From Candidatus Eiseniibacteriota bacterium (GTDB taxonomy: Bacteria; Eisenbacteria; RBG-16-71-46; JABDJR01): a DNA stretch of 64,000 nt. The notes below the pieces were generated by a model. That model saw nothing but the letters and a program-made list of their open reading frames with translations, made no database searches and was not told where the DNA came from. Below are positions 34,507 to 59,275 of this stretch, in pieces. Position 1 is the stretch's first letter. Each line of letters starts with the position of its first letter. Location of the stretch: assembly GCA_963783375.1 (NCBI GenBank), contig CAWANH010000003.1, positions 1 through 64,000 of the forward strand, written 5' to 3'. The translations under genes and the position numbers were made by a program.

Positions 34507-36144
34507 CTACGACGACGAGGAGACCTTCACCCACCGGGCGTCGTTGCTCGGCTTCAGGGGGGTGTTCTCCTGCACGTACTTGGTCAGGGTCTCGAGGTCG
34601 GTGTAGCCGGTGTAGAGGATATCCTCCGGGCTCAGCTCGTCGCGGAGGCGCCACATCCCGCTGTTCCCCTGGGCCAGGTAGTCGGTGAGGGCCACCTTGT
34701 AGGTCTTGTCGGGATCCAGCGGCTGGCCGCCCACGGTGATGTCCACGATCCGGTCCCCGTCCGGGCGGGAGAGGTCGTAGCGAACCTTGCCTCCGGAGAT
34801 GAAGATGCCCCCCGCCTGTCCGGTCAGCTTGTCCTCGAGAATGGCCCGGAGGAGCGACCCCTTCATGTTCACCAGCACCATCTGGTTCCCGAAGGGAGAC
34901 ACCGTCAGGAGGTCCCTCCGGGTGATCGTCCCGGGGGAGATGTCCGCCCGAACCCCGCCGGTGTTCTGGAACGCGAAGTCGGCATTCAGGATCGTCCGGT
35001 AGGCGTCCGCCACCACGAACCCCATGAGGGCGCTGTTGGGCGACCCGCGCTGGAGGAGCACCTCGGTCCGCCCCACCGTCTCTTCCAGCCCCGCCTCCGC
35101 CTTCGAGACCTCGGCCTGGATCACCTCCTTCTGGAGCTCGTCCGGCCAGATCTCGTCCTCGAACAGGGTGACCAGCGCGCCCCGGTCGGCGTGGGTCTCG
35201 AACCCGAGGAGCGACTTGGTGACGGGGTCGATCTTCAGGGTGACGTCCCCGATGCTGGAGCCGTTGGCGTAGGGCTCGAACACCAGGGTGTGGGTCCGGG
35301 GATCCTCCCAGGGCTGGTCGTACCCCTGGTGGGTGTGGCCCCCGAAGATCGCGTCCACGCCCCAGAGCATGTGGGCGATCTCCATGGCGTTCATGCCGTA
35401 GTGGGGAAGCCCGCCGTCCTTCTCCCGCTGGATCATGCGGCGGTACTCGTTGTCCCGCTCCGGCTTGTAGGGAAGGCCGGCGTGCATGAGCACGAAGACC
35501 AGGTCCGCGCCCTCCGCCCGCACCGTTTTCACGTCTTTCTGCAGGGCCTCGAAAACCGGCTCGAACTCGATCCCCTCGATGTTCTTCCCGAAGGACATGT
35601 TGGCGGTGGTTTCGGTGCAGTAGCCGAGCACCGCGATCTTGACCCCCTTGGCGTCGAGCCACACCGGGGAGGGGTCGACCCAGTCCTCGGTCTTCTTGGT
35701 CTTCGCGTCGAGGATGTTGGTTCCCAGGATCGGGAACTTGGCCAGCTCGATCAGACGCTTGGTGTTCTCCCACCCGAGGTCGAAGTCGTGGTTCCCCAGG
35801 GCCACCGCCGTGTAGTCCATGGCGTTCATCCACTGGATGATCGCGGTGCCCTTGGTGTTGATGCCCAGGGGGGTCCCCTGGAAGAGGTCGCCGGAGTCGA
35901 AGAGGAAGACCGGCCGCCCCGCCGCCTTGGCCGCGGCACGCGCGTTCTGGATGTAGGTGGTGGCGGAGGCGCCTCCTCCCAGGGGCGGAGGAAAGTTGGG
36001 GTTCAGGAACGTGGCGTCGTCGTGGGCGATGTGTCCGTGGATATCGCTGGTGTAGAGGATCTCCAGCGAGATCGGAGGCTTCTCGGGGGCGGCCCCCCCG
36101 AGGAACAGAAGCCCGAGGACGGCCAGGATGCTGAATCGCTTCAT
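34507..36144 (-). CDS. Exported 5'-nucleotidase (UshA-like bifunctional metallophosphatase)
   Basis: Signal peptide, SDIHG, DSGDLFQG, GNHDFD, GGHTHQ, C-terminal NTGGVRA...PFGN...DYLAQG. Confidence 0.93.
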   Translation of the reverse strand: MKRFSILAVLGLLFLGGAAPEKPPISLEILYTSDIHGHIAHDDATFLNPNFPPPLGGGASATTYIQNARAAAKAAGRPVFLFDSGDLFQGTPLGINTKGTAIIQWMNAMDYTAVALGNHDFDLGWENTKRLIELAKFPILGTNILDAKTKKTEDWVDPSPVWLDAKGVKIAVLGYCTETTANMSFGKNIEGIEFEPVFEALQKDVKTVRAEGADLVFVLMHAGLPYKPERDNEYRRMIQREKDGGLPHYGMNAMEIAHMLWGVDAIFGGHTHQGYDQPWEDPRTHTLVFEPYANGSSIGDVTLKIDPVTKSLLGFETHADRGALVTLFEDEIWPDELQKEVIQAEVSKAEAGLEETVGRTEVLLQRGSPNSALMGFVVADAYRTILNADFAFQNTGGVRADISPGTITRRDLLTVSPFGNQMVLVNMKGSLLRAILEDKLTGQAGGIFISGGKVRYDLSRPDGDRIVDITVGGQPLDPDKTYKVALTDYLAQGNSGMWRLRDELSPEDILYTGYTDLETLTKYVQENTPLKPSNDARWVKVSSSS

Positions 36145-36349
36145 TGCAGTCTCTTCCTCTCCGCCGTATCCGGGCCGGGAGCGGACTCCACGAAACCGGA
36201 GTAGGGACGGCTCAGGGACGGTTCGGGGTCTTGTAGTTCCCGTCCGAAAGCTGGCTCAGGTCACCGCCGGTGCGATGGGCCACGATTGAAGTGGCAGGAT
36301 CGCCGGTCGCCCGGAGACGGATCGCCGCACCCTCTTTGATACACAAGGC

Positions 36350-37645
36350 CTAGAACGCATAATCCACGCCAAAATGGATCCGAACCAGGGTGTCTTCCAC
36401 CCGGTCCTTGCTGGCTCCCACCCCGAAGTTCTGGTTGTTCAGGTCTCCGCGTGAGCGGACCGGGTCCTGACGGCTCACCCGCTTCGACACTTCCCCGGAC
36501 ACATCGAGCTTCATCTGGTCGATCACGTACCCGAATCCGAAGGTGAAGGCCGAGGTCTGGGCTTCGGTCATCCCGTAGGAATCGCCGAAACGGAACCCGA
36601 TCCGGGCGGGGAGATTGTTGTAGAAGATGTGCTCGATCCCGAACCTCCCCTGCCAGGTGTCGTTCAGGGTGGCGGGAAGCCCGTAGTCGCTCTGAAGAAT
36701 GTCCGCCGGGAGCTTGTCCTTCAGCTCGGACCAGGGCATGTAGACCACGTCCGCGGCGAAGGTGGTCTCGAAGGTGTTCCGGGGCCGGTAGGCCAGTCCG
36801 CCCTGCACGCGGAGGGGCAGGGTCAGGTCGGCGTTGGAGTTCTCGGGGGAGACCTCCACCCCGTTGTACCAGAGGGTGTAGTCGTCGTGGAGCTTGGGGG
36901 CGGTCTCGATCGAGGCCCCCACGTCCAGGCGTTCATCCACGTGGGCCAGGGCCCCGATGGTGACCGAGAACCCGTCCAGCTTCCGCTCCAGGACGGTGTC
37001 GGTGCCGGACGAGTAGAAGGAGGTCGGGAACCGGACCAGGGCCCGGCGATCGGTGAAGGTTCCGAAGTAGTAGTTCACCGCCGCTCCCAGCGAGGATCCC
37101 TCCCCGAGGGGCAGCGCCACCCCGGCGCTGAGGCTGCGGAGCATCCCCTCGGAGGTGATGATCTTGTTGTTCAGCAGGGTGTCGCCTACGTCCTGGGACC
37201 GCAGTTCGTCCAGGTAGTCGAAGCGCGGGTCGTAGCGATTGAAGATCCCCACCGACACCAGGATGCCGCGCTTGCCCCATCGATCGAGAACGAATCCGCC
37301 CTGGACCCCGCCGTATCCGTTGTCGTTCACCGCGATGGCCGTCTCGTCCACGAAGGAGTCGAAGGTGTCGAAGAGCGGAACGAAACGGTTCTCGCTGGCC
37401 CGGGAAAGGGATCCTTCGATCTGCGCCCGGGTTCCCGGCGTGAGGACCATGGCCGCCGGGTTGTCCATCAGGCTGTAGGTGCCGTTCCCCATCGCCGCGC
37501 CGGCGCCGCCCATGGCCCGGGAGCGCGCGGAGAACCCCGCCTCCGGAGTCCCGTAGGCGCGATCGAGAAAGGAAAACGCGTGTGCCGGGCCGGCCGTCAC
37601 GACGATGGCGGCGGCAAGGACCAGCGACAGAATGACTCGCTTCAT
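36350..37645 (-). CDS. Outer-membrane beta-barrel, OmpP1/FadL/PorV-like
   Basis: Signal peptide, SARSRAMGGAG...NPAA N-terminal hatch motif, amphipathic beta-strands, C-terminal GVDYAF. Confidence 0.8.
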   Translation of the reverse strand: MKRVILSLVLAAAIVVTAGPAHAFSFLDRAYGTPEAGFSARSRAMGGAGAAMGNGTYSLMDNPAAMVLTPGTRAQIEGSLSRASENRFVPLFDTFDSFVDETAIAVNDNGYGGVQGGFVLDRWGKRGILVSVGIFNRYDPRFDYLDELRSQDVGDTLLNNKIITSEGMLRSLSAGVALPLGEGSSLGAAVNYYFGTFTDRRALVRFPTSFYSSGTDTVLERKLDGFSVTIGALAHVDERLDVGASIETAPKLHDDYTLWYNGVEVSPENSNADLTLPLRVQGGLAYRPRNTFETTFAADVVYMPWSELKDKLPADILQSDYGLPATLNDTWQGRFGIEHIFYNNLPARIGFRFGDSYGMTEAQTSAFTFGFGYVIDQMKLDVSGEVSKRVSRQDPVRSRGDLNNQNFGVGASKDRVEDTLVRIHFGVDYAF

Positions 37646-37676
37646 GCTCTTTCTCCCGCGATATCAGGCCGGTGGC

Positions 37677-40295
37677 CTAGAAGGAATAGTCCAACTGAAA
37701 CCGATAGGCGCTCTGGTCACCCCGCGCGTTGGTGGCGTCCGGAGTGGGGTTCACGAGCGCCCCGTTGTTCCGGATGTCCACGTAGGTGCGCGCGAGCTGA
37801 TGGTCGGTGGTCCACTTGAACCGCCAGGAAACCTTGGGCGACAGGCGGCTCCTCACCATGAACCAGTTCCGGAAGCCGTTTCCGTCGACCACGATGAACT
37901 CGTTGTCCTCGAAGTTGTAGAGAAAGCCGTCGTAGACCTCGGTGGAGACCGTCGCGGTCAGATAGTCGCTGAAGTTGTGGCTCAAGGAGGCCTGCAGGGC
38001 CTTGGCCGGGATCCCCCGGGATCCCACCAGGTTCCCGTACACGCTCCCGCCCCCGGGGGCGCCGGAGAGGCGTGGACGGACCGCGAACTGCACGTTGGAG
38101 GTCGAGTACAGGAAGCTCATCCGGTCGTAGTCGGAGAGGTTGACCCGCATCTCGATCCGGCTGTCCCAGGACTTGAAATTCCGGAAGTCGTCCGGCCGCT
38201 GCTCGTGCCGGCTGGAGATCCGGTGGCGGATCCGGAAGCGAACCGGGAACACCGGCTGATATTCCGCCCGGACGGTGATCCGCTGCTCGTCGGCGCCGTC
38301 CGCCTTCCGGGTCCAGGTGTCGTACTCCAGGCCGGTCAGGGTAAACTGGCGGGAGAACTGGTACCGGGTGGTGAAGAACCAGCCCCGCTCCGCCTTCGGC
38401 TGGGGCTCACCTCTGGCCATCTCGGCCCAGTAGGGGTTGTTGAGCCGGTACGGGTTCCCGTCCAGGATGGTCTGCTGGTAGCGGCCGTTCTCGGAGAAGG
38501 CGCGGTTGTACGGGTTGTCGTAGCCGACGTCGTAGTCCCGGTAGAGGGCCAGGAAGTTGAAGTTCTCATACTGGACGTACGCGTTGGCGGTGAACGCCTC
38601 GGGACCCTTGGAGAAGATCCGGCTCAGGGCGTCGTTCTTGTCCGAGGTCTCGAGCTTTCCGTACTCCCCGGCCAGGGACACGTTCTTGAACACCGACTGG
38701 CCTTCGAGCCCCCAGATCCGGCGGTAGTTGCCCAGATCCATGCTGTTGTATCGCTGGGTGATCTCGGCGTCCCGGTCCTCCTGGCGGCGCAGGGGATCGA
38801 TGATCAGGGTGGTGGGATCCGGATTCCAGCGGTCGGCGCCGGGGGTGGAGTACGCGTTGTTGTGATACCGCATGTCCACCCCGGTCACTCCGAGAAAAGT
38901 GCCGGGCAGAAACTGGTACTTGAAGTTTCCGCCGACGATCTGCTCCTCCATCACGTCGCGCATGGGCTGGTAGTAGGAGCTGTCGCTGGCCCCCACCAGC
39001 GTTCCGTTACGGATGTCCTCCCGGATCCCGGCGTAGAGGTCGTTGTCGAACCGGGGAACCGCGGTGAAGTAGGAGTTGAAGGAGTGGTCGGGGTTCAGGA
39101 TGGCGTCCTTGTCGTCGTGGGAGTAGAACAAGGTGCCGCGGACGTTCCCCAGGCTCGCCTCCGCCGCCACCCCCTTCAGGGTGTACTCGTCGCTCCGGGA
39201 GAAGTCCCCCCGGAGCCCCAGCGACCGCACGTTGTAGCCGTAGCCGGTCCGCCGGGGGAGGTAGAAGTCGGTGGCGTCCATGACCAGCCCCTGGCCGAAT
39301 GCCACGGTGTAGTTCCCGACCACCGCGCTGTGGAGCTTGAACTTGCCGAGCGGCGTGTCCTTCTCCGGCAGCTCCTGGGCCTCGACGTAGGCCTTCGCCG
39401 TTTCGTCCCACTTCTCCTCGCCCAGATTCCGATGGGTGAGGACGCCGCCCCTCAGGTACCGGCCGTAGCGAAGATGGAGCTTGTTCGTCATGTAGGGACG
39501 CCAGGTCCCGATCGCCGCCCTCCCCCAGTAGGTGTTGGTGTCGAAATCCTTGGGGGTGGGCGCGATGATCTCGGTCAGGTTGTCCAGGTCGTCGAGGGAG
39601 TAGGGGGTGTTGTAGACCCGGAACTGGTAGTACCCGGTCAGCCGGTTCGGCCCGGTGGGCTCCTCGTAGCGCACGAAATCCCGTAGGTTCCGGTACCCCC
39701 AGTAGGTGATGCCGTTGGCCGAGCGGAGCTGTCGCTGATTCTCGATCCGGCCCGCCATCTTCCGTTCCTTCAGCACCGCCACCGCGTCCACCGGGGAGAC
39801 GTTCTGGAAGGAGACCAGATCGAAGTAGTTCATGCGGTTGATGTTCTGGGGGAACTTGAGCCGGTCGACGTACTGGTCGACCAGACCTTCGCTGGCCCCC
39901 TCTTCGGACAGGAACCGCTGGACGACGTAGTAGCGCTCCTGGGCGCGCCGCTCCTCTTCGCGCAGCTCCTCCCGCTCCAGCTCGAACACCGGGGTGATGT
40001 GGATCAGGGGCCGGATCTTCCCGAGAAGCTCCGGGGTCATGCCCGGGACCTCCATGAGGTCGTAGATGCTCCCGAAGTAGGCCCGATAGGTACGGTAGTG
40101 GAAGATCGCCTCCGCGACGTCGCCCGGTATGGGGAGAGCCTTGATCTGGTCCAGGCTGGCCCGGTTCAGATCGAGCTGGTTCTCCTGGGAGTAGGACGTC
40201 GCCGACCCGGCCGGCGGCTGGGCCCCGGCGCTGGCCGCGGCCCCGAGCCCCAGCAAGAGGGCGAGGAGGACGATCCCTCGGCGCTTGATCAACAC
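37677..40295 (-). CDS. Outer-membrane beta-barrel protein with two N-terminal ComEA-type helix-hairpin-helix domains
   Basis: Signal peptide; LDLNRASLDQIKALPI...AEAIFHYR...FGSIYDLMEVPGM; second NINRMNYFDL...VDAVAVLKER...QLRSANGI; GNYTVAFGQGLV; aromatic-rich strands; C-terminal FQLDYSF. Confidence 0.82.
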   Translation of the reverse strand: MLIKRRGIVLLALLLGLGAAASAGAQPPAGSATSYSQENQLDLNRASLDQIKALPIPGDVAEAIFHYRTYRAYFGSIYDLMEVPGMTPELLGKIRPLIHITPVFELEREELREEERRAQERYYVVQRFLSEEGASEGLVDQYVDRLKFPQNINRMNYFDLVSFQNVSPVDAVAVLKERKMAGRIENQRQLRSANGITYWGYRNLRDFVRYEEPTGPNRLTGYYQFRVYNTPYSLDDLDNLTEIIAPTPKDFDTNTYWGRAAIGTWRPYMTNKLHLRYGRYLRGGVLTHRNLGEEKWDETAKAYVEAQELPEKDTPLGKFKLHSAVVGNYTVAFGQGLVMDATDFYLPRRTGYGYNVRSLGLRGDFSRSDEYTLKGVAAEASLGNVRGTLFYSHDDKDAILNPDHSFNSYFTAVPRFDNDLYAGIREDIRNGTLVGASDSSYYQPMRDVMEEQIVGGNFKYQFLPGTFLGVTGVDMRYHNNAYSTPGADRWNPDPTTLIIDPLRRQEDRDAEITQRYNSMDLGNYRRIWGLEGQSVFKNVSLAGEYGKLETSDKNDALSRIFSKGPEAFTANAYVQYENFNFLALYRDYDVGYDNPYNRAFSENGRYQQTILDGNPYRLNNPYWAEMARGEPQPKAERGWFFTTRYQFSRQFTLTGLEYDTWTRKADGADEQRITVRAEYQPVFPVRFRIRHRISSRHEQRPDDFRNFKSWDSRIEMRVNLSDYDRMSFLYSTSNVQFAVRPRLSGAPGGGSVYGNLVGSRGIPAKALQASLSHNFSDYLTATVSTEVYDGFLYNFEDNEFIVVDGNGFRNWFMVRSRLSPKVSWRFKWTTDHQLARTYVDIRNNGALVNPTPDATNARGDQSAYRFQLDYSF

Positions 40296-40304
40296 GGCTG
40301 CCTC

Positions 40305-41207
40305 CTACTTCCCGGACGGAAGGACGTAGCTGATTCCGAACTGGTGGGTGGTGTCCAGGGTGCCTCCCCCGGTGGAGAAGGCGTAGTCCAGGCTGATCCC
40401 GTAATGGTTGATTCCCACCCCGGCGGTGAAGACGTTGGGCGAGGTGCGGAGACCGGCCCGGAGCCTCAGGAACTCGGTCACCTCGAACTCGGTGCCCGCC
40501 CGGTACTGGAGCGCGTCGCCCAGCTGGTTGGTGATGTCCAGAACCGTGGTCACCCCGGCGTAGGGACTGTAGGCCACCCCCGCCCCGATCTGTCGGAGCA
40601 GTTCTTCGTGGTCGATCTTGCCGATCGACGGGTTGTTGATGTTGTGGGCGTAGAACCCGACCCGGGTCCGCTCGTGGACCACGGCCTGGGCGGAGAGGTT
40701 CACCCCCACCGTGGTCGCGCTCCCCGGATCCATCCCGGTCACCGATGTGCCGTAGTCCAGCGAGTAGAGGTTCACCGACCAACCCGCGCTCACCGTGCTC
40801 TGCATGTCCTGGAGGAGCTGGAAGCCGTGAGCGAGGGAGACCGTGGTCTCGCCGGTCAGGCTCTCTCCCAGGTACTCCACCGCGAAACGACGGATCCCGA
40901 TTCCCACTCCGCCCCAGCGGCCGATCGGGGCGATCCCCGAGACCACGCTCTGGCTCGAGAAGTCGTACCCGAAGGGACGGGTATAGGAGCCCGCTCCGCG
41001 AATGTCACCGGCCCAGGCCAGGGCGGCCGGGTTGTGGAACGCGGAATAGGCGTCGGGGCCCATGGCCACGAAGGACATCCCCATGCCCCGCGACCTCGGC
41101 GAGACCTCCACGTCGTCGAAGGCCGCGGAAGCGACCCCCGCCAGGCCCGCGCAGAGGGCAACAACTGCAATCAGGATCAGACCCTTCTGGCATTTCGTCC
41201 TTGGCAT
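40305..41207 (-). CDS. PorV/PorP-like small outer-membrane beta-barrel
   Basis: Signal peptide, SPRSRGMG...AFHNPAAL, NINNP, LRAG, LDYAF...THQFGISY. Confidence 0.8.
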   Translation of the reverse strand: MPRTKCQKGLILIAVVALCAGLAGVASAAFDDVEVSPRSRGMGMSFVAMGPDAYSAFHNPAALAWAGDIRGAGSYTRPFGYDFSSQSVVSGIAPIGRWGGVGIGIRRFAVEYLGESLTGETTVSLAHGFQLLQDMQSTVSAGWSVNLYSLDYGTSVTGMDPGSATTVGVNLSAQAVVHERTRVGFYAHNINNPSIGKIDHEELLRQIGAGVAYSPYAGVTTVLDITNQLGDALQYRAGTEFEVTEFLRLRAGLRTSPNVFTAGVGINHYGISLDYAFSTGGGTLDTTHQFGISYVLPSGK

Positions 41208-41216
41208 GACGCCTCC

Positions 41217-46268: not shown

Positions 46269-46503
46269 TGGACGGGACCTTTCTCCTTCACGGAGTCGGC
46301 TGGCAACCGACCGGAGGGACCCGGTCGGTCGTTCGGCGGGTGGAGCCGGCCTCGAACTGCTATCGCCTTACCCCCCACGTTACCAATCCGGCCGGCATCA
46401 CGGTTTTGAGACCAGACGCTCGCTGGGCGCGAAGCGACGAGTCGGACAAAACGTACTCCCCTCCCGTCGTCGATCCGAACGGCGGGTGTGGGGTTAGCCG
46501 CGC

Positions 46504-46532
46504 AGTCTAACCCCCGCCTCCGGGAATTTCCA
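46504..46532 (-). promoter_or_regulatory. Candidate sigma70-type promoter for the surface-protein/barrel operon
   Basis: TGGAAA-17 nt-TAGACT on the minus strand, overlapping the AT-rich 3' end and stop of the upstream gene. Confidence 0.35.
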
Positions 46533-48726: not shown

Positions 48727-48801
48727 GGCGCCAATCCTAACCGGTGGGGCCCGGCGCCGTCATTCCTGTCCGCTCCCCGGCGCCGAAGAGGGCAGGCGCC
48801 C

Positions 48802-48839
48802 AAAAAAAAGGTGGGGGACCGGATAACCGGTCCCCCACC
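48802..48839 (-). terminator. Rho-independent terminator
   Basis: 13-bp perfect stem GGTGGGGGACCGG/CCGGTCCCCCACC, 4-nt loop, then T8 on the minus strand, 22 nt after stop 48862. Confidence 0.9.
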
Positions 48840-48861
48840 GAGGTCGAACTCCCGAAGGAGA

Positions 48862-50775
48862 TCAGCGGATGTAGAGCATCTTCCGGGTCAGGACCTGGCT
48901 CCCCACCTCGAGGCGGTAGAAATAGATCCCGGTGCCCGAGTTCCCCATGGTGGTCGCGTCGACGCTGGCCACGTGATCCCCGGGGGTCATCTCGGCATCC
49001 ACCAGGGTACGCACCAGGCGTCCCTGGATGTCGAACACCGAGAGCTTCACCGGTGTCCGGACGTCCGCCCCCGCGGCCGCCGGCACCTGGAAGTGAATCT
49101 CGGTGCGGGCCCCGAAGGGGTTGGGGATGTTCTGGGCCAGCCGGAGCGTCGGCTTGAGCGGGTTGTCGCCCACGCCGGTGGCGGTCAGGAACACGATGTC
49201 GCTGGCGAACCGCGGCACGATCTCGTAGCCGCCGGTGTAGGGGCTCGAGCTGTCGTACTGGCTGCCGATCCCGGTCACCGTGATGTACTGGCTGGTCACC
49301 GGGGTGCCGGGGATGTTCGTGTCCAGGTCGATGAACATCTGGACCGAGTCCGGGACGCAGTTCCGGATGTAGTAGCTCACGTTGGTTCCCGCCGGCGACA
49401 GGGTGTCGACCCCGGCCGGGAGAGCGGCGATGTTCATGGTGATGAGCTCGCCCTCGAAGGCCTCGAAATCGTCGCAGGAGGTGACGATCTTCGGCGCCGG
49501 AACCGCTCCCGGACCGTTGATGTCCACCAGCAGGGAGTCGCAACCGGCCCCCGAGGTGATCTCGAGCTTCCCGTTGTACTGGTCGATCGTGCCCTCGACG
49601 GTCACGTCGTCCCCCAGGCTGGGCTGCACGGTGTGGGTCCCGTACTTGAACACGTCGATCCCGCCGGTGGCGTCCTGGATGTAGTACTCGGTGTTCGCGG
49701 TCTGGAACACGCCGTAGGGAACGGTGCAGTTGCCCCGGACCCGAACTCCCAGGAAGCGGTAGATGTTGGCCTGGTTGGCGTCCATCACCTGGATATCGCC
49801 GATGTCCGTCGTCCCCACGAAGTACCCCCGCTCGAAGCCGACGGTGGTGTCGGGGTTGGCGTTCCGGGCGTAGACGGTGTAACGAACGATGTCACCGTTC
49901 GAGGGCTGGCCGGGGATGGTCGCCTGGAACACGGTGGTGTCGCCCGAGGTGGAGAACGTGCTCATGGCCACCACGCTCTCCGCCCCGCCGTTCACCGAGT
50001 AGTGGAGGTCGGCGGCGGTGGCGTAGAGAACGAAGGCCTGCGCGGTCACCGACTGGTTCGGCACCGGGACGCAGGGGGTGCGGAGCTGGTCGAAGACGTC
50101 CGGGGGCGGATTCAGGCAGCTCGGGTTCGGGCTGCCGGGGGTGTCGTCGATGCCCAGGGTGAACTGCCCGATGACCCACTGGTTGACCAGGTCGGAGCAG
50201 CGATAGACGTGGCCGGGGACGAAGGAGCCGTCCGGACCTACCGTGGTGGCGCAGTAGAGGTACTCGTCGCCCGCGCAGTTGGGGGTGGTCCCCTCGTCCA
50301 GCCCGACGCAGTCCACGATGGACGTCCACGGAGTGGTGTCGAAGGTGCCGGTATCGAGGGTGTCGAGATCCTGGCCGTCGGTTCCCGTGAACCCGAGCAC
50401 CAGCATGTGGGTGACGTTGTCGCTGTTTTCGAAGTTCATGGCCAGCGACGCGTCGTATCCGGTGAGCGTGTTGGCGTCACCGGCCTTCAGCGCCGCGAAC
50501 AGGCTGTCGGCCTGGATGGAGTACCCGTCCAGGGGCGTCACCGACTCGATGGTTCCGCAGGAAGTCACCGAGCCGTCCCCGATCACGAGGTAGGTGTAGC
50601 CGTTCAGGCTGGTGCCCGGAGCGCCCTTCAGTTCGAAGTACTCATCGGTGTCCCCGCCCGGCATGTCGGTGCGGATCTCGTTGATCTTGATCTGGGCCGA
50701 AGCCGTCCCGATCATTCCCATCAACCCGATGCCCAGCGCGAGAAAGAAGACGAATCGCAGCGTAGGTCGTTTCAT
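48862..50775 (-). CDS. Secreted protein: LTD-like domain, Ig-like domain, OB-fold(s), T9SS/FlgD-type C-terminal sorting domain
   Basis: Signal peptide; INEIRTDMPGGDTDEYFEL...NFENSDNVTH; YYIQDATGGIDVF...LGDDVTVEGTIDQYNGKLEI; VTGIGSQYD...YEIVPR; AQNIPNPF...VFDIQGRLV...GIYFYRL...RKMLYIR. Confidence 0.85.
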   Translation of the reverse strand: MKRPTLRFVFFLALGIGLMGMIGTASAQIKINEIRTDMPGGDTDEYFELKGAPGTSLNGYTYLVIGDGSVTSCGTIESVTPLDGYSIQADSLFAALKAGDANTLTGYDASLAMNFENSDNVTHMLVLGFTGTDGQDLDTLDTGTFDTTPWTSIVDCVGLDEGTTPNCAGDEYLYCATTVGPDGSFVPGHVYRCSDLVNQWVIGQFTLGIDDTPGSPNPSCLNPPPDVFDQLRTPCVPVPNQSVTAQAFVLYATAADLHYSVNGGAESVVAMSTFSTSGDTTVFQATIPGQPSNGDIVRYTVYARNANPDTTVGFERGYFVGTTDIGDIQVMDANQANIYRFLGVRVRGNCTVPYGVFQTANTEYYIQDATGGIDVFKYGTHTVQPSLGDDVTVEGTIDQYNGKLEITSGAGCDSLLVDINGPGAVPAPKIVTSCDDFEAFEGELITMNIAALPAGVDTLSPAGTNVSYYIRNCVPDSVQMFIDLDTNIPGTPVTSQYITVTGIGSQYDSSSPYTGGYEIVPRFASDIVFLTATGVGDNPLKPTLRLAQNIPNPFGARTEIHFQVPAAAGADVRTPVKLSVFDIQGRLVRTLVDAEMTPGDHVASVDATTMGNSGTGIYFYRLEVGSQVLTRKMLYIR

Positions 50776-50886
50776 GGTGCCATTAACCCCCTAAGAATGC
50801 TCAGCCCACCCCTAGACACACGCAGGAGGGATTCAATGCGCGGGTGAGCGGTTGCACCCCCCTTTTGAAGATGTGGTCGCTCAATA

Positions 50887-50915
50887 ACCCTATCGCAAAT
50901 CGACCCCTGTTTCAA
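50887..50915 (-). promoter_or_regulatory. Sigma70-type promoter
   Basis: TTGAAA-17 nt-TAGGGT on the minus strand in an AT-rich intergenic region. Confidence 0.6.
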
Positions 50916-50970
50916 TGACAAAAACTTGACAGAACGGTGACAACCGCTTGAATTCCAGGGGGTTGGAGGA

Positions 50971-51816
50971 TCAGGAGACAAGGAGCCGGGGGAGGAGGGC
51001 CTGGAGGAACCGGGTGAAGGTCTCCCGGACCCGGGCCGTAACCTCCATCACCTCTTGATGGTGGAGCGGCTCGGCACTGAGCCCGGCGGCCAGGTTGGAT
51101 ATGCAGGAGATCCCCAGGACCTCCATCCCCAGATGGCGGGCCGCCACCACCTCGGCCACCGTGGACATCCCCACCGCATCCCCCCCGAACCGCTTGACCA
51201 TCCGGATCTCGGCGGGGGTCTCGTAGGCCGGTCCCAGGTTCCCCCAGTAGGTCCCCGCGCGGACCCGCGCCAGCCCCAGCTCGGCCGCGGTCCGGTGCGC
51301 GACGTCCAGGAGCCGGCGGGAGAAGGGCTCGGACATGTCCACGAAGCGGTCCCGGTCGAGGAGCGGGCCCCGTCCCCGGAGCGGGCTCTGGAACTGGAGG
51401 TTCATCTGATCCTCGATCAGCATGAGATCGCCCGGCTCCAGCCGGTGATCCACTCCCCCCGCGGCGTTCGTCACCACCAGGACCCGGGCTCCCAGGGCGT
51501 GCATCACCCGCAGAGGGAAGGTGATCTGCGCCGCGGAGTACCCCTCGTAGAGGTGGAACCTCCCCTGCTGGGCCGCCGCCGGAACGCCGTTCGCCGCCCC
51601 CAAGACCAGCCGCCCGGCGTGCCCCTCCACCGTGGATACCGGAAAACCCGGGAGATCGGCGTAGTCCACCGCGACCCGGTCTGCGAAGGTATCGGCGTAG
51701 TCCCCGAGCCCCGAGCCCAGGATCAGGGCCACTCCGGGAACCTGATCGGTCCGGGCCCGGACCGCCGCCGCCGCCCGCTCCACCTCTTCCGGGCCGTAGG
51801 CCATGACGCCGCTCAT
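50971..51816 (-). CDS. punA: Purine-nucleoside phosphorylase (trimeric type)
   Basis: ILGSGLG, STVEGHAG, QGRFHLYEGY, TNAAGG, GPAYETPAE, VGMSTVAE, SNLAAG. Confidence 0.96.
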   Translation of the reverse strand: MSGVMAYGPEEVERAAAAVRARTDQVPGVALILGSGLGDYADTFADRVAVDYADLPGFPVSTVEGHAGRLVLGAANGVPAAAQQGRFHLYEGYSAAQITFPLRVMHALGARVLVVTNAAGGVDHRLEPGDLMLIEDQMNLQFQSPLRGRGPLLDRDRFVDMSEPFSRRLLDVAHRTAAELGLARVRAGTYWGNLGPAYETPAEIRMVKRFGGDAVGMSTVAEVVAARHLGMEVLGISCISNLAAGLSAEPLHHQEVMEVTARVRETFTRFLQALLPRLLVS

Positions 51817-52442
51817 GCCGCAGTCTCGCGGAGCATGCTGCGCACCTTGGTCACCAGGAGATCGATGGCCACCCGGTTCTTCCCCCCCTCGGGAATGATG
51901 ATGTCGGCGAAGCGCTTGGAGGGTTCGATGAACTGCTGGTGCATGGGGCGCACGCTCTCCTCGTACTGGGTGAGGATCGACTCGAGGCTTCGGCCCCGCT
52001 CCACCGTATCCCGGCGGATGCGCCGGATGAGCCTGACGTCGGCATCGGTGTCGATGAACACCTTGATGTTCATCAGCCGGCGGAGCGCGGGGTCCTCCAG
52101 GACCAGGATCCCCTCGAGGATCACCACGGTGTGGCCCTCCACCCGCTCGGTCTGGGGGAGCCGGGTGTGATGGGTGAAGTCGTAGATGGGCTTGTCGATG
52201 GGTTGCCCCCGGAGCAGGGTCTGCACGTGATCGAGGAGCAGCTCGCGATCGAAGGAGTCGGGGTGGTCGAAGTTCAGCCGTCCACGCTCCTCGACCGACA
52301 GCCCGGCAAAGTCCCGGTAGTAGGCGTCCTGCTCGAGCATCACCACTTCGGAGGAGCCGAGATTCCGGATGAGGGTCGAGGCCACCAGGGACTTTCCCGA
52401 GGCGGTCCCGCCGGCGAGCCCGATGAGCAACGGTCGTTCCAT
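51813..52442 (-). CDS. udk: Uridine kinase
   Basis: GGTASGKS, QDAYY, NFDHPDSFD, ILEGIL, RRIRRD..ERGR, FIEPSKRFADIIIP. Confidence 0.97.
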   Translation of the reverse strand: MERPLLIGLAGGTASGKSLVASTLIRNLGSSEVVMLEQDAYYRDFAGLSVEERGRLNFDHPDSFDRELLLDHVQTLLRGQPIDKPIYDFTHHTRLPQTERVEGHTVVILEGILVLEDPALRRLMNIKVFIDTDADVRLIRRIRRDTVERGRSLESILTQYEESVRPMHQQFIEPSKRFADIIIPEGGKNRVAIDLLVTKVRSMLRETAA

Positions 52443-52458
52443 GGGTCCTCTCCCCGTC

Positions 52459-53589
52459 CTAGAAGTGGTCGCGCGGCGGGACGAACTGGGGTCCGAAGCT
52501 CCGGGCCACGATGCCGTCGAGTTCGTCCAGCACCTGGGTGAGGAGCGCCACCTTCCGCTTGAGCGGCAGGAAGGCGCTCTTGAAGCCGTTCAGCACCAGC
52601 TTCCGCACGTCGGGTATTCCCAGCTCGAACGCCTCGACGGCCAGCTGGTACTCCCGGGTGATGTCGGTCGCGCTCATCAGGGTGTTGTCGGTGTTCAGGG
52701 TGACCCGGAGGTCCTCGTCGTAGTAGAGCCGGAAGGGGTGGTCGGCGAGGCGGCTCACCACCCCGGTCTGGAGGTTCGAGCTCAGGCAGATCTCCATCGG
52801 GATCCGATGGTTGTTCACGTAGGCCATGAGGTCGGAGTCCTCGTGAAGCCGGGTGCCGTGACCGATGCGGTGGGCCCCCAGGTAGTGGATGGCCTGATGG
52901 ATGCTGGGAGGGCCGAACCCTTCCCCGGCGTGGCAGGTGCAGTTGATGTTGTTGTTGAGGATCTTGTAGAAGGCCTGGACGTGATCCTTGGCCGGGTAGT
53001 CCTTCTCCGCTCCGGCCAGGTCGAAGGCGACCACCCCGCGGTTCTTGTACTCCACGCTCAGGTCGGCCAGTTCCATGGTGGACTGGGGAGGGAGATTCCG
53101 GATGCCGCAAACGATCGCTCCGGTGAGGGTTCCGGTCTTCCGGGACGCTTCGTCCAGCCCGGCCAGCACCCCTTCCAGGATATCCCGCATCGAGTGGCCG
53201 TTCTTGAGATGAAGGATGGGGGAGAATCGCACCTCCACGTAGCGAACGTTCTCCTTCGCCGCGTCCTCCACCACTTCCCGGGCCACGCGCCGGACCGCAT
53301 CGGGTTCCTGGAGAACGGAGAGCGTGAGGTCGAACGCCTCCAGGTATTCCTCCAGCGACTCGCAGGCGTCCCCGCAGATCAACCGGCGGCGGAGATCGTC
53401 CTCGCTGTCCACCTTGAGCGCCACCCCCTGCTCCCGGGCCAGGTCCTTCACCGTTCCCAGGCGGAGGGATCCGTCCAGGTGAAGATGGAGATCGGTCTTG
53501 GGGATCTCGTGGAGGAAACTGGGATGATCCAGGATCATCCGGGCCTCCCGCGCCCTCTCGCTCGAACCCTCGGTCGCCGTGTTCGTCAT
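52459..53589 (-). CDS. add: Adenosine deaminase
   Basis: PKTDLHLHLDGS, YVEVRFSP, FDLAGAE, HAGE, RIGHG, EICLSSN, LNTDN. Confidence 0.95.
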   Translation of the reverse strand: MTNTATEGSSERAREARMILDHPSFLHEIPKTDLHLHLDGSLRLGTVKDLAREQGVALKVDSEDDLRRRLICGDACESLEEYLEAFDLTLSVLQEPDAVRRVAREVVEDAAKENVRYVEVRFSPILHLKNGHSMRDILEGVLAGLDEASRKTGTLTGAIVCGIRNLPPQSTMELADLSVEYKNRGVVAFDLAGAEKDYPAKDHVQAFYKILNNNINCTCHAGEGFGPPSIHQAIHYLGAHRIGHGTRLHEDSDLMAYVNNHRIPMEICLSSNLQTGVVSRLADHPFRLYYDEDLRVTLNTDNTLMSATDITREYQLAVEAFELGIPDVRKLVLNGFKSAFLPLKRKVALLTQVLDELDGIVARSFGPQFVPPRDHF

Positions 53590-53695
53590 CGTGAAACCCT
53601 TTCTTGCCCGCCCGCCTCCGCGGGCCCGTTCTGCATCCTGTCCCGGCCGCGCGGCGGTCCGGCCCCGGCCCGATCCGGCCCCCCCGCGCCCCCGG

Positions 53696-55051
53696 TCAGT
53701 TCAATTCCACCCGGGCCAACAGCGCCCGGATCTCCTCCCTCGGTCGACGGCGGAGCGCCTCGGGGTCCAGATGGGGCAGGCGGCCGGCGTCCACCGCCAC
53801 CTCGCCGTCCACCACCACCCAGCGCACCGCGTCCCGCCCCGCCGCGTAGACGATCCGATCGTAGACCGAAACCCGTTCCGGTCCAAAACTCTGGGGGCGG
53901 TCGAGGTCCAGGATGGCCAGGTCCCCCGCCTTTCCCGGCTCGAGGCTCCCCAGATCGTCCTCGAGCCCCATCGCCCGCGCCCCCTCCACCGTGGCCAGCT
54001 CCAGCGCCTCCTCGGCCCGGAACGCGCCGGGGCCGCGCTTGAATCCGGTAAGGAGGGCGGCGAGCCGCATCTCCTCCAGGACGTCCATGTCGTTGTTGCA
54101 GGGGGCGCCGTCGGTTCCGATTCCCACCGCCAGGTTCGGCCGGCCGCGAAGAAAAACGATGTCCGCGATCCCCGAACCCAGCTTGAGATTGGCCGAGGGG
54201 CAGTGGGCGATCCCCATGCGCCGGCCCGCCAGCACCTCCAGCTCCCGCTCCCCGAGCCACACCGCATGGGCCACGCGGAGATCGGCGTCCAACACCCCCC
54301 GCCGGTCCAGGAACTCCATCTGGCTCGTGCCGAGGGCTTCACGCACCGAGGTCTCCTCGTCGCGGCTCTCCAGGAGATGAGTGTGCATGGGCGCGGCCAG
54401 GGAGCGGGCCAATCCGGCTGCCCCCTCCCAGAGACCGGGGGAGCAGGACAGGATGAACCGGGGACAGACCGCGCCCCGGATCCGGCCGCGTCCCTCCCCG
54501 TGCCACTTGCGGTGGAGCGCCTCGGCCTCGGCCAAGCCCGCCGCGGCGTCCTCGGCCAGGGGGGCGGGGACCCCGGCCCCGGTGTCCATGAGGCACTTCC
54601 CCGCGGTGGCCCGAAGCCCCGAGTCGAGGATGGCCCGGAACACCCCCTCCATCCCCCGCACCACCCCGATTTCCTGGACGGTGGTGGTGCCGGAAAGCAG
54701 GCAGTCCGCCGCCCCCAGCATCGCCGACCAGTAGGCGCTCTCCTCGGTGTGCGCCGCCTCCAGGGGCCAGATGCGGTCCCGAAGCCAGCTCAACAGGGCC
54801 CGGTCCTCGGCCAGCCCCCGGAACAGCGCCTGGCCCAGGTGGACGTGGCCCTGGATGAACCCGGGGAGAACGTGGAGTCCGCGGGCGTCGAGGAGCCGGG
54901 ACCCCGAGGGCGCATCGAGATTCCGGCCCACCGCGGCGATACGCCCCTCGGTGATGAGGAGGTCCTCCTCCACCACCCGGCGGCCGGGATCCATGGTGAC
55001 CAGCGTTCCCCCGGAGACCAGGAGATGCCGGTGGGAACGGGGGCGGTTCAC
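53696..55051 (-). CDS. Amidohydrolase, MtaD/5'-deoxyadenosine deaminase-like
   Basis: PGFIQGHVHL, SGTTT, PRFILSCS, HTHLLES, AHAVWL, HCPSANLKLGSG, DGAPCNN; GTG 55051 overlaps the hpt stop. Confidence 0.88.
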   Translation of the reverse strand: MNRPRSHRHLLVSGGTLVTMDPGRRVVEEDLLITEGRIAAVGRNLDAPSGSRLLDARGLHVLPGFIQGHVHLGQALFRGLAEDRALLSWLRDRIWPLEAAHTEESAYWSAMLGAADCLLSGTTTVQEIGVVRGMEGVFRAILDSGLRATAGKCLMDTGAGVPAPLAEDAAAGLAEAEALHRKWHGEGRGRIRGAVCPRFILSCSPGLWEGAAGLARSLAAPMHTHLLESRDEETSVREALGTSQMEFLDRRGVLDADLRVAHAVWLGERELEVLAGRRMGIAHCPSANLKLGSGIADIVFLRGRPNLAVGIGTDGAPCNNDMDVLEEMRLAALLTGFKRGPGAFRAEEALELATVEGARAMGLEDDLGSLEPGKAGDLAILDLDRPQSFGPERVSVYDRIVYAAGRDAVRWVVVDGEVAVDAGRLPHLDPEALRRRPREEIRALLARVELN

Positions 55052-55611
55052 GGGTTGGTGTACACCTCTTCCTTCAGGACCCCGATGTAGGGGAGGTTCC
55101 GGTAGATGCCCAGGTAGTCCAGGCCGTAACCCACCACGAACTCGTTGGGGCACTCGAAGCCCACGTACTTGACCGGCACCTCCTCCATCCGGGCCTCCCG
55201 CTTGTCCAGGAGCGCGCAGATCTCCACCGAGGCCGGGTGCCGGGTGTTCAGGTTGTCGAGGAGGTAGCTCGCGGTCAGCCCGCTGTCGATGATGTCCTCC
55301 ACCAGGAGCACGTCCCGCCCGGTGATGTTCTCGTTCAGGTCCTTCAGGATGCGCACCACGCCCGAGGACTGGGTGCCCCCGCCGTAGGAGGAGACGGACA
55401 TGAAGTCCACCTCCAGATGGGTGTTCATGGTCCGCACCAGGTCGGCGATGAAGGGGAAGCATCCGTTCAGGATGCCGACCATGAGCACCCGCCGACCGGC
55501 GTAGTCGCGCACGATCTCGTCCCCCATCTCGCGGACCTTGGCCTGGATCGCCTCCTGGGTAAAGAGGACCTCGCGTAGCCCGGACCCGATGCCTTCCTGC
55601 CAATTCTTCAT
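55048..55611 (-). CDS. hpt: Hypoxanthine phosphoribosyltransferase
   Basis: DFMSVSSYG, VLLVEDIIDSGLT (PRPP motif), FVVGYGLDY, RNLPYIG; start ATG 55611. Confidence 0.97.
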   Translation of the reverse strand: MKNWQEGIGSGLREVLFTQEAIQAKVREMGDEIVRDYAGRRVLMVGILNGCFPFIADLVRTMNTHLEVDFMSVSSYGGGTQSSGVVRILKDLNENITGRDVLLVEDIIDSGLTASYLLDNLNTRHPASVEICALLDKREARMEEVPVKYVGFECPNEFVVGYGLDYLGIYRNLPYIGVLKEEVYTNP

Positions 55612-55712
55612 GCGTTCGTCTCCCGAGGTTCTTGAGTTCCGGGCCCCGGGACGTGGCCGGGACCTCCGCGCGGGAGCCCCGGCCGTGAGCCGGCCGGGCC
55701 TCCGAATACAGC

Positions 55713-57023
55713 CTACAACAGCATGCCGGCCAGGGTGGCGGTCAGGGCGCTGGCCAGGGCCCCCACGATCATCGCCTTGAACCCCAGCCGGGCCAGGTCG
55801 TGGCGGCGTTCGGGGGCCATCCCCCCGATCCCTCCGATCTGGATGGCGATGCTGCTCAGGTTGGCGAATCCGCACAGGGAGTAGATGGCGATCACGTACG
55901 CCTTGTCCGAGATCTGTTGGTGGATCGATCCGAGCTGGATATAGGCCAGGAACTCGTTCACCGCCAGCTTGGTCCCGATCAGGTTCCCCACCGCGGGGGC
56001 GTCGTGCCAGGGAACCCCCATCGCCCAGGCCATGGGGGCGAACGCCCATCCGAAGATCTTGGCCAGGGTGAGGTCGTTCAGGAAGGGCAGCGAACCGGCC
56101 AGGGGATGGGAGACCTTGAGCAGGATGTAGTTGACCAGGGCGATGAGGGCGATGAACGCGATGAGCATGGCGCCCACGTTGGCCGCCAGCTTGAGCCCGG
56201 TGGCCGCGCCCGAGGCGGCGGCGTCGATCACGTTCACCGTGTCCTTCTCCACCTCCACCTTCACGTACCCCGCGGTCTGGGACTCGCGGGTTTCCGGCAC
56301 CGCGATCTTGGCCAGGGTGAGCGCGGCGGGCGCGCTCATCACCGAGGCGGTGAGGAGATGCCCGGCGTCGATCCCGAACCGCACGTAGGCGGCCATCACC
56401 CCCCCGGCCACGGTGGCGAATCCCCCCACCATGACCGCCATCAGCTCGCTGACCGTCATGGAGGAGACGAAGGGGCGGACCATGAGCGGAGCCTCGGTCT
56501 GTCCCACGAAGATGTTGGCGGCGGTGGAGAGGGTTTCCGATCCCGAGGTCTTCATGGTCTTCTGCATCACCCAGGCCACCGCGGCCACGATGCGCTGCAT
56601 GATCCCCAGGTGGTAGAGCACCGACATGAGCGCGGAGAAGAAGATGATGGTGGGCAGAACGTGGATGGCGAAGATGACCCCCAGCTCCACCAGCTTTCCG
56701 GTGCCGCTGTCGGTGACCTGGACGTAGCCCTGCATGGCCCCCGGCCCCAGGCTCTTGGCGATGTCCGGGGTCGAGCGGTAGAGGTTCCCGAAGAGGAAGC
56801 CCGCCCCCGCGTCGGTGAAGGAGAGCAGGCGGTTCACCATCGCCCGGCCCAGCACGAAGAGGCGCTCTCCGGGCCCGGTCTTGAGGATCACCACCGCGAA
56901 GATCACCTGGAGCCCGATCCCCCAGGCCACCGTCCGCCATCGGATGGCCCGGCGATCGGTGCTGATCAGCCAGCAGATGCCCAGAATCATCACCACCCCG
57001 ATGAGACCCACGAATCGGCTCAT
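55713..57023 (-). CDS. nupC: Concentrative nucleoside transporter (CNT, NupC/NupG family)
   Basis: VLPTIIFFSAL, ANIFVGQTEAP, GFATVAGG, SVMSAPA, KLAVNEFLAY, LCGFANLSS. Confidence 0.95.
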   Translation of the reverse strand: MSRFVGLIGVVMILGICWLISTDRRAIRWRTVAWGIGLQVIFAVVILKTGPGERLFVLGRAMVNRLLSFTDAGAGFLFGNLYRSTPDIAKSLGPGAMQGYVQVTDSGTGKLVELGVIFAIHVLPTIIFFSALMSVLYHLGIMQRIVAAVAWVMQKTMKTSGSETLSTAANIFVGQTEAPLMVRPFVSSMTVSELMAVMVGGFATVAGGVMAAYVRFGIDAGHLLTASVMSAPAALTLAKIAVPETRESQTAGYVKVEVEKDTVNVIDAAASGAATGLKLAANVGAMLIAFIALIALVNYILLKVSHPLAGSLPFLNDLTLAKIFGWAFAPMAWAMGVPWHDAPAVGNLIGTKLAVNEFLAYIQLGSIHQQISDKAYVIAIYSLCGFANLSSIAIQIGGIGGMAPERRHDLARLGFKAMIVGALASALTATLAGMLL

Positions 57024-57492: not shown

Positions 57493-57555
57493 CCGGCCGC
57501 GAACGTACGGCCATCGTCCGGCATTCCGCGGAAGGAAATGAGGAGGGTGCACGGC

Positions 57556-58446
57556 ATGAAGATACTGATGGCGGCGGCCACGGCCGGGATCCTGATCGGA
57601 GCGTCGGGCGCGGCGGCCGGGGCCCGGGAGTACCCGACCGACCCCGGCGCGCTCCAGCCGCCGATGGAGTTCACCGCCCTCACCATCGTCACCCCCGACT
57701 CGGCCCGGCTCGCGAGCTGGTTCGTTCCCGCCCAGGACTCGGCCGGGGCCCGGCTCCCGGGCGTGCGCCCCGGGCTCCTGGTGCTCCCCGGCGACGGCGA
57801 CACCATGGACCGGCGCCTTCCCCTGGTGGCGGCCATGGCCCGCCGGGGCTTCAACGTCCTCACCTTCGATCACCGCGGCCGCGGCGGGAGCAGCGACTTT
57901 CCCGTCCCGAGGGACGCCCTCGTTCTCCCCGAGTTCCTCAACGACGCCCACGCCGGTCTTTGGGTCCTGTGGAAGCGCCCGGAGGTGGATACCACCCGGG
58001 TCGCGGTCTACGGCGAATCCAAGGGGGCGTGGCTGGCCTTCGCCCTGGCCGGGGAGCGCACCGAGGTGCGAGGGATCGTGGCCGCCTTTCCCCCCACCGG
58101 GGCCAAGGACTGGATCCCGCTTCTGGAGGAGGCCCACCCCGATCGGAAGTTCTACGTCCCCAAGGGATGGAAGCGCCGGGACGATCCCGACAAGGTGGTG
58201 AACCGGTTCAACGGGCCGGTCTTCTTCATCGCCGGGGACGCCGATCTCACCAACCCGACCTGGATGGCCGAGGAGCTTCATCGGCGCTACCCCCGTCCCA
58301 AGGACCTATGGGTGATCCAGGGAGCGGCCCACGACGGGGACCGAACCCCGGAGAAGGTGGCGGGACGCGAGTACTACGACCGGATCGCCGCCTTCCTCAC
58401 CCGGGAGCTGGCCAAGCCCCCGCACCGGGGCTGGCCGGAACGTTGA
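57556..58446 (+). CDS. Exported alpha/beta hydrolase
   Basis: Signal peptide, GFNVLTFDHRGRGGS, nucleophile elbow YGESKG, GDAD, GAAHD. Confidence 0.9.
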   Translation: MKILMAAATAGILIGASGAAAGAREYPTDPGALQPPMEFTALTIVTPDSARLASWFVPAQDSAGARLPGVRPGLLVLPGDGDTMDRRLPLVAAMARRGFNVLTFDHRGRGGSSDFPVPRDALVLPEFLNDAHAGLWVLWKRPEVDTTRVAVYGESKGAWLAFALAGERTEVRGIVAAFPPTGAKDWIPLLEEAHPDRKFYVPKGWKRRDDPDKVVNRFNGPVFFIAGDADLTNPTWMAEELHRRYPRPKDLWVIQGAAHDGDRTPEKVAGREYYDRIAAFLTRELAKPPHRGWPER

Positions 58447-59227: not shown

Positions 59228-59232
59228 TTCTC

Positions 59233-59267: not shown

Positions 59268-59275
59268 TCCACCGA

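Follow-up and report, generated by a model that had tools for sequence, protein, structure and literature searches.

A recurrent five-gene outer-membrane cassette beside nucleoside salvage genes in an Eisenbacteria genome, with a possible role in nucleic-acid feeding

In sediments, extracellular DNA is described as a major source of phosphorus, nitrogen and carbon (PMC8289736). How such polymers might be fed upon without a TonB-dependent transporter is the question raised by a locus in a Candidatus Eiseniibacteriota bacterium (assembly GCA_963783375.1). It lies in a window of 64,000 nucleotides, the whole stretch of DNA analyzed here (contig CAWANH010000003.1, positions 1 to 64,000), and is a run of 13 minus-strand genes at 34507-57023. 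The original prediction, made from the sequence alone, read these 13 consecutive genes as one system for capturing, importing and salvaging nucleic acid. All 13 are present at those positions, and they fall into two modules: a five-gene cassette, which encodes a secreted protein with LTD, immunoglobulin-like (Ig) and OB domains, a PorV/PorP-like barrel, a barrel with helix-hairpin-helix (HhH) units, a FadL/BamG-like barrel and a 5'-nucleotidase, and an ordinary hpt/udk/punA/add salvage cluster. With some reserve, we favor the reading that the cassette is a TonB-independent nucleic-acid feeding system and that the salvage cluster is its neighbor only in the host's family and order. What is undescribed and of interest here is the cassette; the salvage half is ordinary and provides local context only. 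Genomes, loci and contigs carry G, L and C numbers, G000 being the window's own genome (4.7 Mb).

Conservation and parts of the cassette

Two sets of loci were compared. The genome set was obtained with a profile from 47 aligned HhH barrel proteins, and its 68 loci were fetched from the best 80 of 199 matches; the metagenome set came from a more distant alignment, and its 80 loci are the best 80 of 487, with GC contents of 26%-69%. Positional counts were restricted to loci with enough flanking sequence, and since many loci come from kin, the counts are not independent. Within these bounds the cassette is strikingly constant. The PorV-like gene lies directly upstream of the HhH barrel gene at 67 of 67 genome loci and is itself preceded by a tailed secreted gene at 60 of 61, while a FadL-like gene follows the HhH barrel (59/59) and a 5'-nucleotidase follows the barrels (51/51). 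The same order recurs in most of the 80 metagenome loci, with the nucleotidase in 58 and many contigs short. The neighborhood comparison of homologs of 37677-40295 that had been proposed bears out the secreted protein and the nucleotidase as partners, whereas outside the order salvage genes were as a rule not found beside the barrel. The surface half of the locus (capture protein, barrels and nucleotidase), which had been proposed as a unit with nucleic-acid-related parts, is strongly conserved.

Named members of the family belong to at least seven groups at phylum level, namely Eisenbacteria, Krumholzibacteriota, Zixibacteria, Calditrichaeota, Cloacimonadota, WOR-3 and Elusimicrobiota. No Bacteroidota name occurs among the matches listed (the best 120-150), and most matches are nameless. 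No published description of the five-gene cassette was found in the literature searched, with subscription journals and bioRxiv supplements outside its coverage. One genome, G176, carries three copies of the cassette (L083, L068 and L079), with a secreted protein of up to six LTD-like repeats. At two other loci, L176 and L179, the barrel, the FadL-like gene and the nucleotidase occur with no upstream PorV-like or tailed gene detected; this arrangement is possibly a version without type IX secretion.

The central member of the cassette (37677-40295; HHH_3, 49 bits) encodes a predicted outer-membrane barrel of 24 strands that carries two ComEA-type HhH units at its N-terminus (HhH region, residues 36-210). 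Its AlphaFold model (pLDDT 78.9) contains two helical units followed by 24 long strands, as counted by DSSP. Residues 38-101 match ComEA (8dss) with a Z score of 12.0 and a root mean square deviation (rmsd) of 1.3 over 64 residues, and the barrel part holds 28 conserved arginines. The folds closest to the model are the 24-strand ushers FimD and PapC (Z 14.3, with rmsd 5.0 and 9% identity, and Z 13.7), and a Foldseek search returned generic barrels only (TM-score at most 0.31). For none of the three barrels was there a match to the TonB-receptor or plug families in Pfam or NCBIfam, and no match to the SusC or SusD families was found in the same databases, in agreement with the original prediction that the locus has neither kind of transporter. 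Judging by their N-terminal position, the HhH units would face the periplasm. Alignments of the model to TonB-dependent receptors start near residue 120, a hint, and only that, that the second HhH unit may sit at the lumen. The HhH barrel is likely the gate of the cassette.

The two smaller barrels flank this gene. Upstream, the PorV/PorQ/PorP-like barrel (40305-41207) scores 56.7 bits against PorV_fam (cut-off 90), 19 bits against PorP_SprF and 23.5 bits against the NCBIfam PorP profile (cut-off 90.55). By analogy with the pairs PorP-PG1035 and PorQ-PorZ, it likely anchors the large secreted protein. Downstream, the FadL/BamG-like barrel (36350-37645) ends in YAF and matches Toluene_X at 24 bits, BamG at 67.6 bits (cut-off 250) and PorV_fam at 45 bits. 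Porphyromonas gingivalis PG1035 was itself considered as an HhH barrel, an idea that proved wrong and was rejected.

At the upstream end of the cassette, 41217-46268 encodes the large secreted protein, which consists of an extended LTD-like domain, six SbsC-type Ig domains (Pfam LTD; Big_5 six times), three tandem-OB units and a type IX secretion system (T9SS)-type tail. A model of residues 28-690 (663 mature residues; pLDDT 89.7) covers the extended LTD-like domain, two of the S-layer-type Ig domains and one tandem OB pair (residues about 490-685). Structures that this pair matches are RPA (3e0e, Z 12.2), the DNA-bound HIN domain of p204 (5z7d, Z 11.0) and p202 (4jbm, Z 9.5 over 159 residues), and the LTD-like part matches the DUF4876 protein BT_1938 (4q1z; Z 14.6, 194 residues, 16% identity). 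Pfam called no OB fold in the window proteins; the OB folds that had been predicted for the secreted proteins find their support in the structure model. Ig domains dominate the Foldseek results for the secreted protein, and a sequence search of solved structures returned S-layer Ig domains only. OB units were found in 46 of the 80 metagenome loci.

A second, accessory secreted protein is encoded at 48862-50775, with an LTD-like domain, an Ig domain, a DUF5689-like OB pair and a type A T9SS tail (TIGR04183, 32.3 bits; cut-off 23). Its OB region (residues about 328-528) aligns to the OB pair of the large protein (hhalign, 177 columns, E 2.9e-5), and its match to DUF5689 is weak (22.1 bits, E 1.5e-4; cut-off 28.6). 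The small secreted gene adjoins the cassette in the host's order and in G122 and is absent or unlinked in most other genomes.

The tail of the large protein stands apart in this genome. On the cassette profile it scores 114.8 bits, against at most 46 bits for the other genome matches (86 domain rows), and it forms a cassette-specific subclass; in isolation it reaches 23.6 bits on the type A profile (cut-off 23). Among 53 cassette tails, 39 match type A, 52 match PorU and 15 match PorZ profiles, and the type B model is absent from the 14 families matched. The SprA/Sov translocon (TIGR04189) is above cut-off in five of five genomes, G000 included. The G000 match (C29:766899-771106) falls into two frames close to its N-terminus, where a frameshift or an assembly error is possible.

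The cassette closes with an exported UshA-type 5'-nucleotidase (34507-36144), in which Metallophos and 5_nucleotid_C both lie above cut-off. The motifs DxH34, GD85, NHD118 and GHTH269 are present and are conserved in 46 aligned homologs; the signal peptide was judged by eye.

The salvage cluster and the promoter repeat

The second module begins with punA (purine nucleoside phosphorylase, 50971-51816; NF006054, 332 bits, cut-off 218) and udk (uridine kinase, 51813-52442; NF004018, 297 bits, cut-off 180), followed by add (adenosine deaminase, 52459-53589; TIGR01430, 304 bits, cut-off 216.55). At 53696-55051, the gene that had been called an MtaD-like deaminase is indeed an amidohydrolase of MtaD/DadD type and a putative nucleoside deaminase; its best score, to the NCBIfam 5'-deoxyadenosine deaminase, is 460.6 bits and falls below the cut-off of 522. 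Beyond it lie hpt (hypoxanthine phosphoribosyltransferase, 55048-55611; TIGR01203, 210.8 bits, cut-off 150), which like udk is a single genome copy, and a NupC-type CNT nucleoside transporter (55713-57023) with three CNT Pfam domains above cut-off and 421.6 bits on TIGR00804 (cut-off 442). The transporter is optional: nupC was found in 22 of 34 barrel-bearing genomes and not found in 12, including G003, G004, G008 and G009, and the CNT transporter is thus dispensable. Elsewhere in G000, a gene for an organophosphate-antiporter-like protein of the MFS type stands beside a second adenosine-deaminase-like gene, in a stretch that occurs twice in the assembly (C28:437252-439849 and C18:10949-13492).

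Is this cluster part of the system? Close relatives suggest a bond. The distance from udk to the barrel is 8.2-12.1 kb in six genomes (G000, G001, G003, G004, G006 and G008), the last of which keeps the linkage after an inversion, and punA still adjoins the small secreted gene in the broken assemblies G002 and G005. The bond loosens within the order and disappears beyond it. The G009 salvage operon and small secreted gene are about 32 kb apart; in G122, a single contig, udk is 571 kb from the barrel; and the two are on separate contigs in G072, G073, G090, G093 and G108, several of them fragmented. G007, which is 75% complete, yielded no barrel. In all 20 distant genomes examined (G157-G176) udk and the barrel are on separate contigs, and in 17 of these at least 18 kb of contig lies upstream of the barrel. 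A salvage-like gene of any kind occurs at 1 of the 80 metagenome loci. Conversely, among 24 barrel-negative genomes udk is present in 22, with hpt within 1.5 kb of it in 15 of those. Because the barrel linkage fails beyond the order and the cluster exists without the barrel, the salvage cluster is older housekeeping that adjoins the cassette in one order. The original prediction had named unlinking of the two halves in related genomes as the observation that would speak against a single system; they are unlinked in distant relatives and linked in close ones.

It could still be that, in this order, all 13 genes form one selected, co-regulated locus for nucleic-acid use, a reading that we consider rather improbable. 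Linkage in six genomes of two families, persisting through the G008 inversion, speaks for it, as do the common direction of all the genes and the six-gene salvage operon found here, where most other genomes have two- or three-gene clusters. These genomes are kin and not independent, however, so they cannot tell whether selection keeps the cassette and the salvage genes together. The G009 operon has already moved away from the small secreted gene, nupC is missing in four of eight scored relatives of the order, and hpt and udk are the only genome copies. Several promoters and a terminator also divide the stretch, and no shared motif was found before its other units. The claim that the 13 genes are one system thus holds as linkage within the family and order and fails at greater distance.

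The terminator that had been placed within 48802-48839 was found at 48810-48839, 3' of the small secreted gene, as a 13-bp stem and T-run on the minus strand; an equivalent hairpin and T-run occurs in G001, G003, G004 and G006. At the other end of that gene, the promoter (50888-50943) bears three TGTCA repeats with an 11-bp period (50916-50942), the last running into TTGAAA-17-TAGGGT. This triple has its sole exact occurrence in the genome here, and two or three repeats occupy the same position in G001-G006, which with G000 makes seven family genomes. The repeat is absent at this position in G008, G009, G072, G073 and G122. In G006 an extra small exported gene has been inserted between punA and the small secreted gene, behind the conserved promoter (C14; L027:14800-15200). 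The TGTCAAG repeat was considered as an antisense -35 element and dropped, as no conserved -10 was seen by eye.

Direct repeats at an 11-bp period are the layout of a Pho box (PMC12351708), and in relatives the motif does accompany phosphate genes. In five relatives, doublets of the form YGTCA-N6-YGTCA number 8-19 per genome, while the reversed control gives 0-5. Of the eight sites in G001, three lie ahead of phoB, pstS and an organophosphate-antiporter-like gene; of the 19 in G006, two lie ahead of phoB and pstS. These contexts come from 14 stretches chosen by eye, most other sites being without assignment. No such doublet was seen in the pst stretches of G003, G122 and G161. In G000 itself there are 6 doublets, as compared with 4-17 at control periods, and a position weight matrix scan could not separate period 11 from the controls below the top site (20 hits versus 5-22). 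We tentatively suggest, from sequence, that the small secreted gene may be under PhoB-type control; another OmpR-family regulator is the alternative.

The Pho genes of G000, which has four PhoB-like regulators, are arranged differently. The phoB and type-2 pst operon of G001 and G006 was not found there, and the phoR ortholog (C28:462280-464100; 74% to G001) has before it just a short remnant that looks like the end of phoB. CTAAC repeats with an 11-bp period are found two before pstC and four before pstS (C28:1242940 and 1246572), in an operon that reads pstC-pstA-pstB-phoB-pstS. They are probably a second type of Pho box.

Other searches of the stretch gave little. An Rfam scan of 33500-58000 returned no family at gathering score, and therefore no known riboswitch, and a consensus promoter scan gave nothing above shuffled sequence. 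One RNA run (X1, share 0.06, contigs only) covered the locus and a control region at 1000-20900 alike, by fragments from relatives.

Between the cassette and the small secreted gene lies a gene that had been listed simply as a lipoprotein (46507-48726). It is one, and can be refined to a CehA/McbA-like protein with a degenerate PHP domain (CarboxypepD_reg; CehA_McbA, 54.5 bits, cut-off 80). The HxH metal motif is replaced by TGV, and about 60 residues are missing from the window copy; among five aligned copies the motif is intact only in L041, having been lost here and in three of four relatives. The protein is likely a family-specific passenger and, to judge from these losses, inactive. Outside the locus, an alpha-2-macroglobulin gene and a PbpC-like gene (26394-34231) form an ordinary pair found beyond it in the host's family only, and a divergent alpha/beta hydrolase, a lipoprotein without a Pfam match and an M14 peptidase (57538-62137) border the salvage operon within the genus.

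Feeding and the competing roles

From the genes, domains, model folds, gene order, linkage pattern and repeat described above, we infer the following binding, transport and regulatory steps for a feeding cassette. The large protein would leave the cell through the type IX system, and its special tail would let the PorV-like barrel hold it at the surface, where its OB pairs would bind nucleic acid. The bound polymer would be cut by secreted nucleases, whose genes lie elsewhere in this genome and within the cassette in other lineages. Fragments would then cross the 24-strand barrel, the fused ComEA-type units pulling them inward with no part played by TonB, and the exported 5'-nucleotidase would release phosphate and nucleosides. 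NupC or another carrier would import the nucleosides for recycling by PunA, Add, Udk, Hpt and the deaminase, and the Pho-box-like repeat at the small secreted gene would make part of the system responsive to phosphate supply.

The nucleases in this scheme are represented by candidates and neighbors. G000 encodes a secreted, tailed endonuclease I (C3:171349-172722) and a second secreted, tailed protein (C3:146769-148870) with DNase I-like motifs seen by eye and a weak ExeM match; because Pfam gave no EEP match, the latter is a nuclease candidate only. Both lie on the window's own contig, 80-110 kb beyond the window. The ExeM/NucH profile was above cut-off in none of five genomes. At 16 of the 68 genome loci, G004 and G006 among them, a ComEC-like metallo-beta-lactamase lipoprotein gene stands between the FadL-like gene and the nucleotidase; in the window this site is a 205-bp gap (36145-36349) and the gene is absent. 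Among the 80 metagenome loci, for which one representative per cluster was scanned, an EEP protein follows the nucleotidase at 22, endonuclease I-LTD occurs at five and a class B acid phosphatase at four.

Several observations weigh against a feeding role, or against parts of it. No nuclease domain was found among the 13 locus genes in Pfam or NCBIfam, and the mechanism leaves the FadL/BamG-like barrel unexplained. Proteins that bind no nucleic acid can have OB, HhH and LTD folds too, and similarity of fold does not establish function. Within the phylum of the host the barrel is unevenly distributed, having been found in only 16 of 153 genomes. The link to salvage genes is lineage-restricted, with none in the 20 distant genomes, and may therefore be a chance adjacency inherited by kin. 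The genome also has purM and pyrB, and hence purine and pyrimidine synthesis of its own (one gene checked per pathway); nucleotide auxotrophy of the host was rejected on the same two genes. As for phosphate control, G000 lacks a phoB matching the relatives' TGTCA-type boxes, its pstC and pstS promoters bear CTAAC repeats instead, and the region ahead of the large secreted gene shows no enrichment of the repeat, which occurs there at period 11 in 2 of 71 loci and at control periods in 1-4.

The boldest form of the feeding reading, which we hold to be doubtful, is that the HhH barrel is a third outer-membrane route for nucleic acid besides the secretin/pilus and TonB routes. It would have a built-in ComEA ratchet and a T9SS-exported OB stalk on a partner barrel, and together with a salvage operon and a phosphate-responsive second binder would make up a complete feeding locus in this order. 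If true, a barrel with fused DNA-binding units and free of the plug family would be a new transport principle, as well as a marker gene by which nucleic-acid feeders could be recognized in uncultured phyla, and widespread uncultured bacteria of soil, sediment and sea would be specialist recyclers of nucleic-acid phosphorus. The parts of the cassette are small enough for tests without culturing the host.

Import could instead serve natural transformation. The cassette would then be a second route in which OB domains capture DNA, the barrel and its ComEA-type units pass it to ComEC, and the nucleotidase recycles the degraded strand. The ComEA-like HhH unit, the presence of ComEC and the optional ComEC-like neighbor are consistent with this, as is a DUF5689/barrel/HhH set in Riemerella that is essential for transformation (PMC8459023). 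However, G000 also has a standalone ComEA (C29:167566), PilQ (C29:191612) and ComEC, and therefore ordinary competence without need of the HhH barrel; standalone ComEA is above cut-off in five of five genomes tested and PilQ in 13 of 14. The recurring neighbors are degradative (nucleotidase, EEP protein, endonuclease I and acid phosphatase), and comEC, comF and dprA were not seen among them. The separate competence genes favor feeding over transformation, and we regard the latter as unlikely.

More improbable still is that nothing is imported and that the three barrels export and anchor the large surface protein, which would act as an adhesin or S-layer-like stalk and might bind matrix DNA. 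The closest folds to the large barrel are indeed ushers, which export, the two small barrels resemble PorV/PorQ and BamG, and the Ig domains resemble those of the S-layer proteins SbsC and Sap. The usher match, however, at 8-10% identity and an rmsd of about 5, reflects barrel size only, SprA is already present for export, and the HhH units, the 28 arginines and the fixed nucleotidase would go unexplained. We give as little credence to the import of small phosphorylated compounds (nucleotides, sugar nucleotides or cyclic nucleotides) past surface domains that are mere scaffolds: the 5'-nucleotidase is the only catalytic gene always present, and many Krumholzibacteriota secreted proteins repeat the LTD-like domain with no match to this genome's OB unit, but neither HhH units nor a pore of 24 strands would be required for small solutes, true nuclease families are recurrent neighbors of the cassette, and OB units are present at 46 of 80 metagenome loci.

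Comparison with known systems

Within the literature searched, the sole characterized locus dedicated to uptake depends on a TonB-dependent transporter. This is ddbABCDEF of Bacteroides thetaiotaomicron (PMC12478041), which like the feeding cassette proposed here is an exogenous-DNA-type cluster that combines an outer-membrane barrel with an OB-fold surface protein. DdbD was matched to the p202 HIN structure 4jbm, which the OB pair of the large protein also matches, and the small secreted protein weakly matches DUF5689, the family of DdbD. DdbC is a TonB-dependent transporter, while the barrel here carries HhH units and gave no match to plug or TonB families; the Ddb surface proteins are lipoproteins, while the binders here have T9SS-type tails and stand beside a PorV-like barrel; and here the 5'-nucleotidase is fixed and nucleases are optional, with none in the window locus. 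By these parallels the cassette appears functionally analogous to ddbABCDEF, and because neither its transporter nor its nuclease content agrees with that cluster, we do not count it as a ddb-type member. The original statement that no characterized system has this parts list stands with regard to the parts and needs amending with regard to function.

In Riemerella anatipestifer, RA0C_RS04915, RA0C_RS04920 and RA0C_RS02645 encode a DUF5689 protein, an outer-membrane barrel and an HhH protein that are essential for transformation and are proposed to carry DNA into the periplasm (PMC8459023). In that set the HhH protein is separate and predicted to be periplasmic and the barrel is TonB-receptor-like. 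Here the HhH units are fused to a barrel of a different family, and the neighbors are degradative.

The secreted end of the cassette recalls the T9SS cargo/shuttle pairs PorP-PG1035, SprF-SprB and PorQ-PorZ (PMC9143113, PMC12618676 and PMC5562754), in that a tailed gene likewise directly precedes a PorV/PorP-like barrel gene; PorZ is reported to retain its tail. The cassette differs from these pairs in a tail that is not type B, a barrel below the PorV cut-off and a phylum other than Bacteroidota. DUF4876 proteins are putative lids of non-SusC TonB-dependent transporters (bioRxiv 10.1101/2023.03.17.533168), and since the LTD-like domain has the same fold as BT_1938, it could lie above the barrel. 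BT_1938 is a lipoprotein beside a TonB-dependent transporter, whereas the domain here is at the head of a long Ig/OB stalk. Finally, compared with bacterial nucleoside salvage clusters, the window's hpt, udk, punA, add and nupC are ordinary members, and only their position beside the cassette is special to this order.

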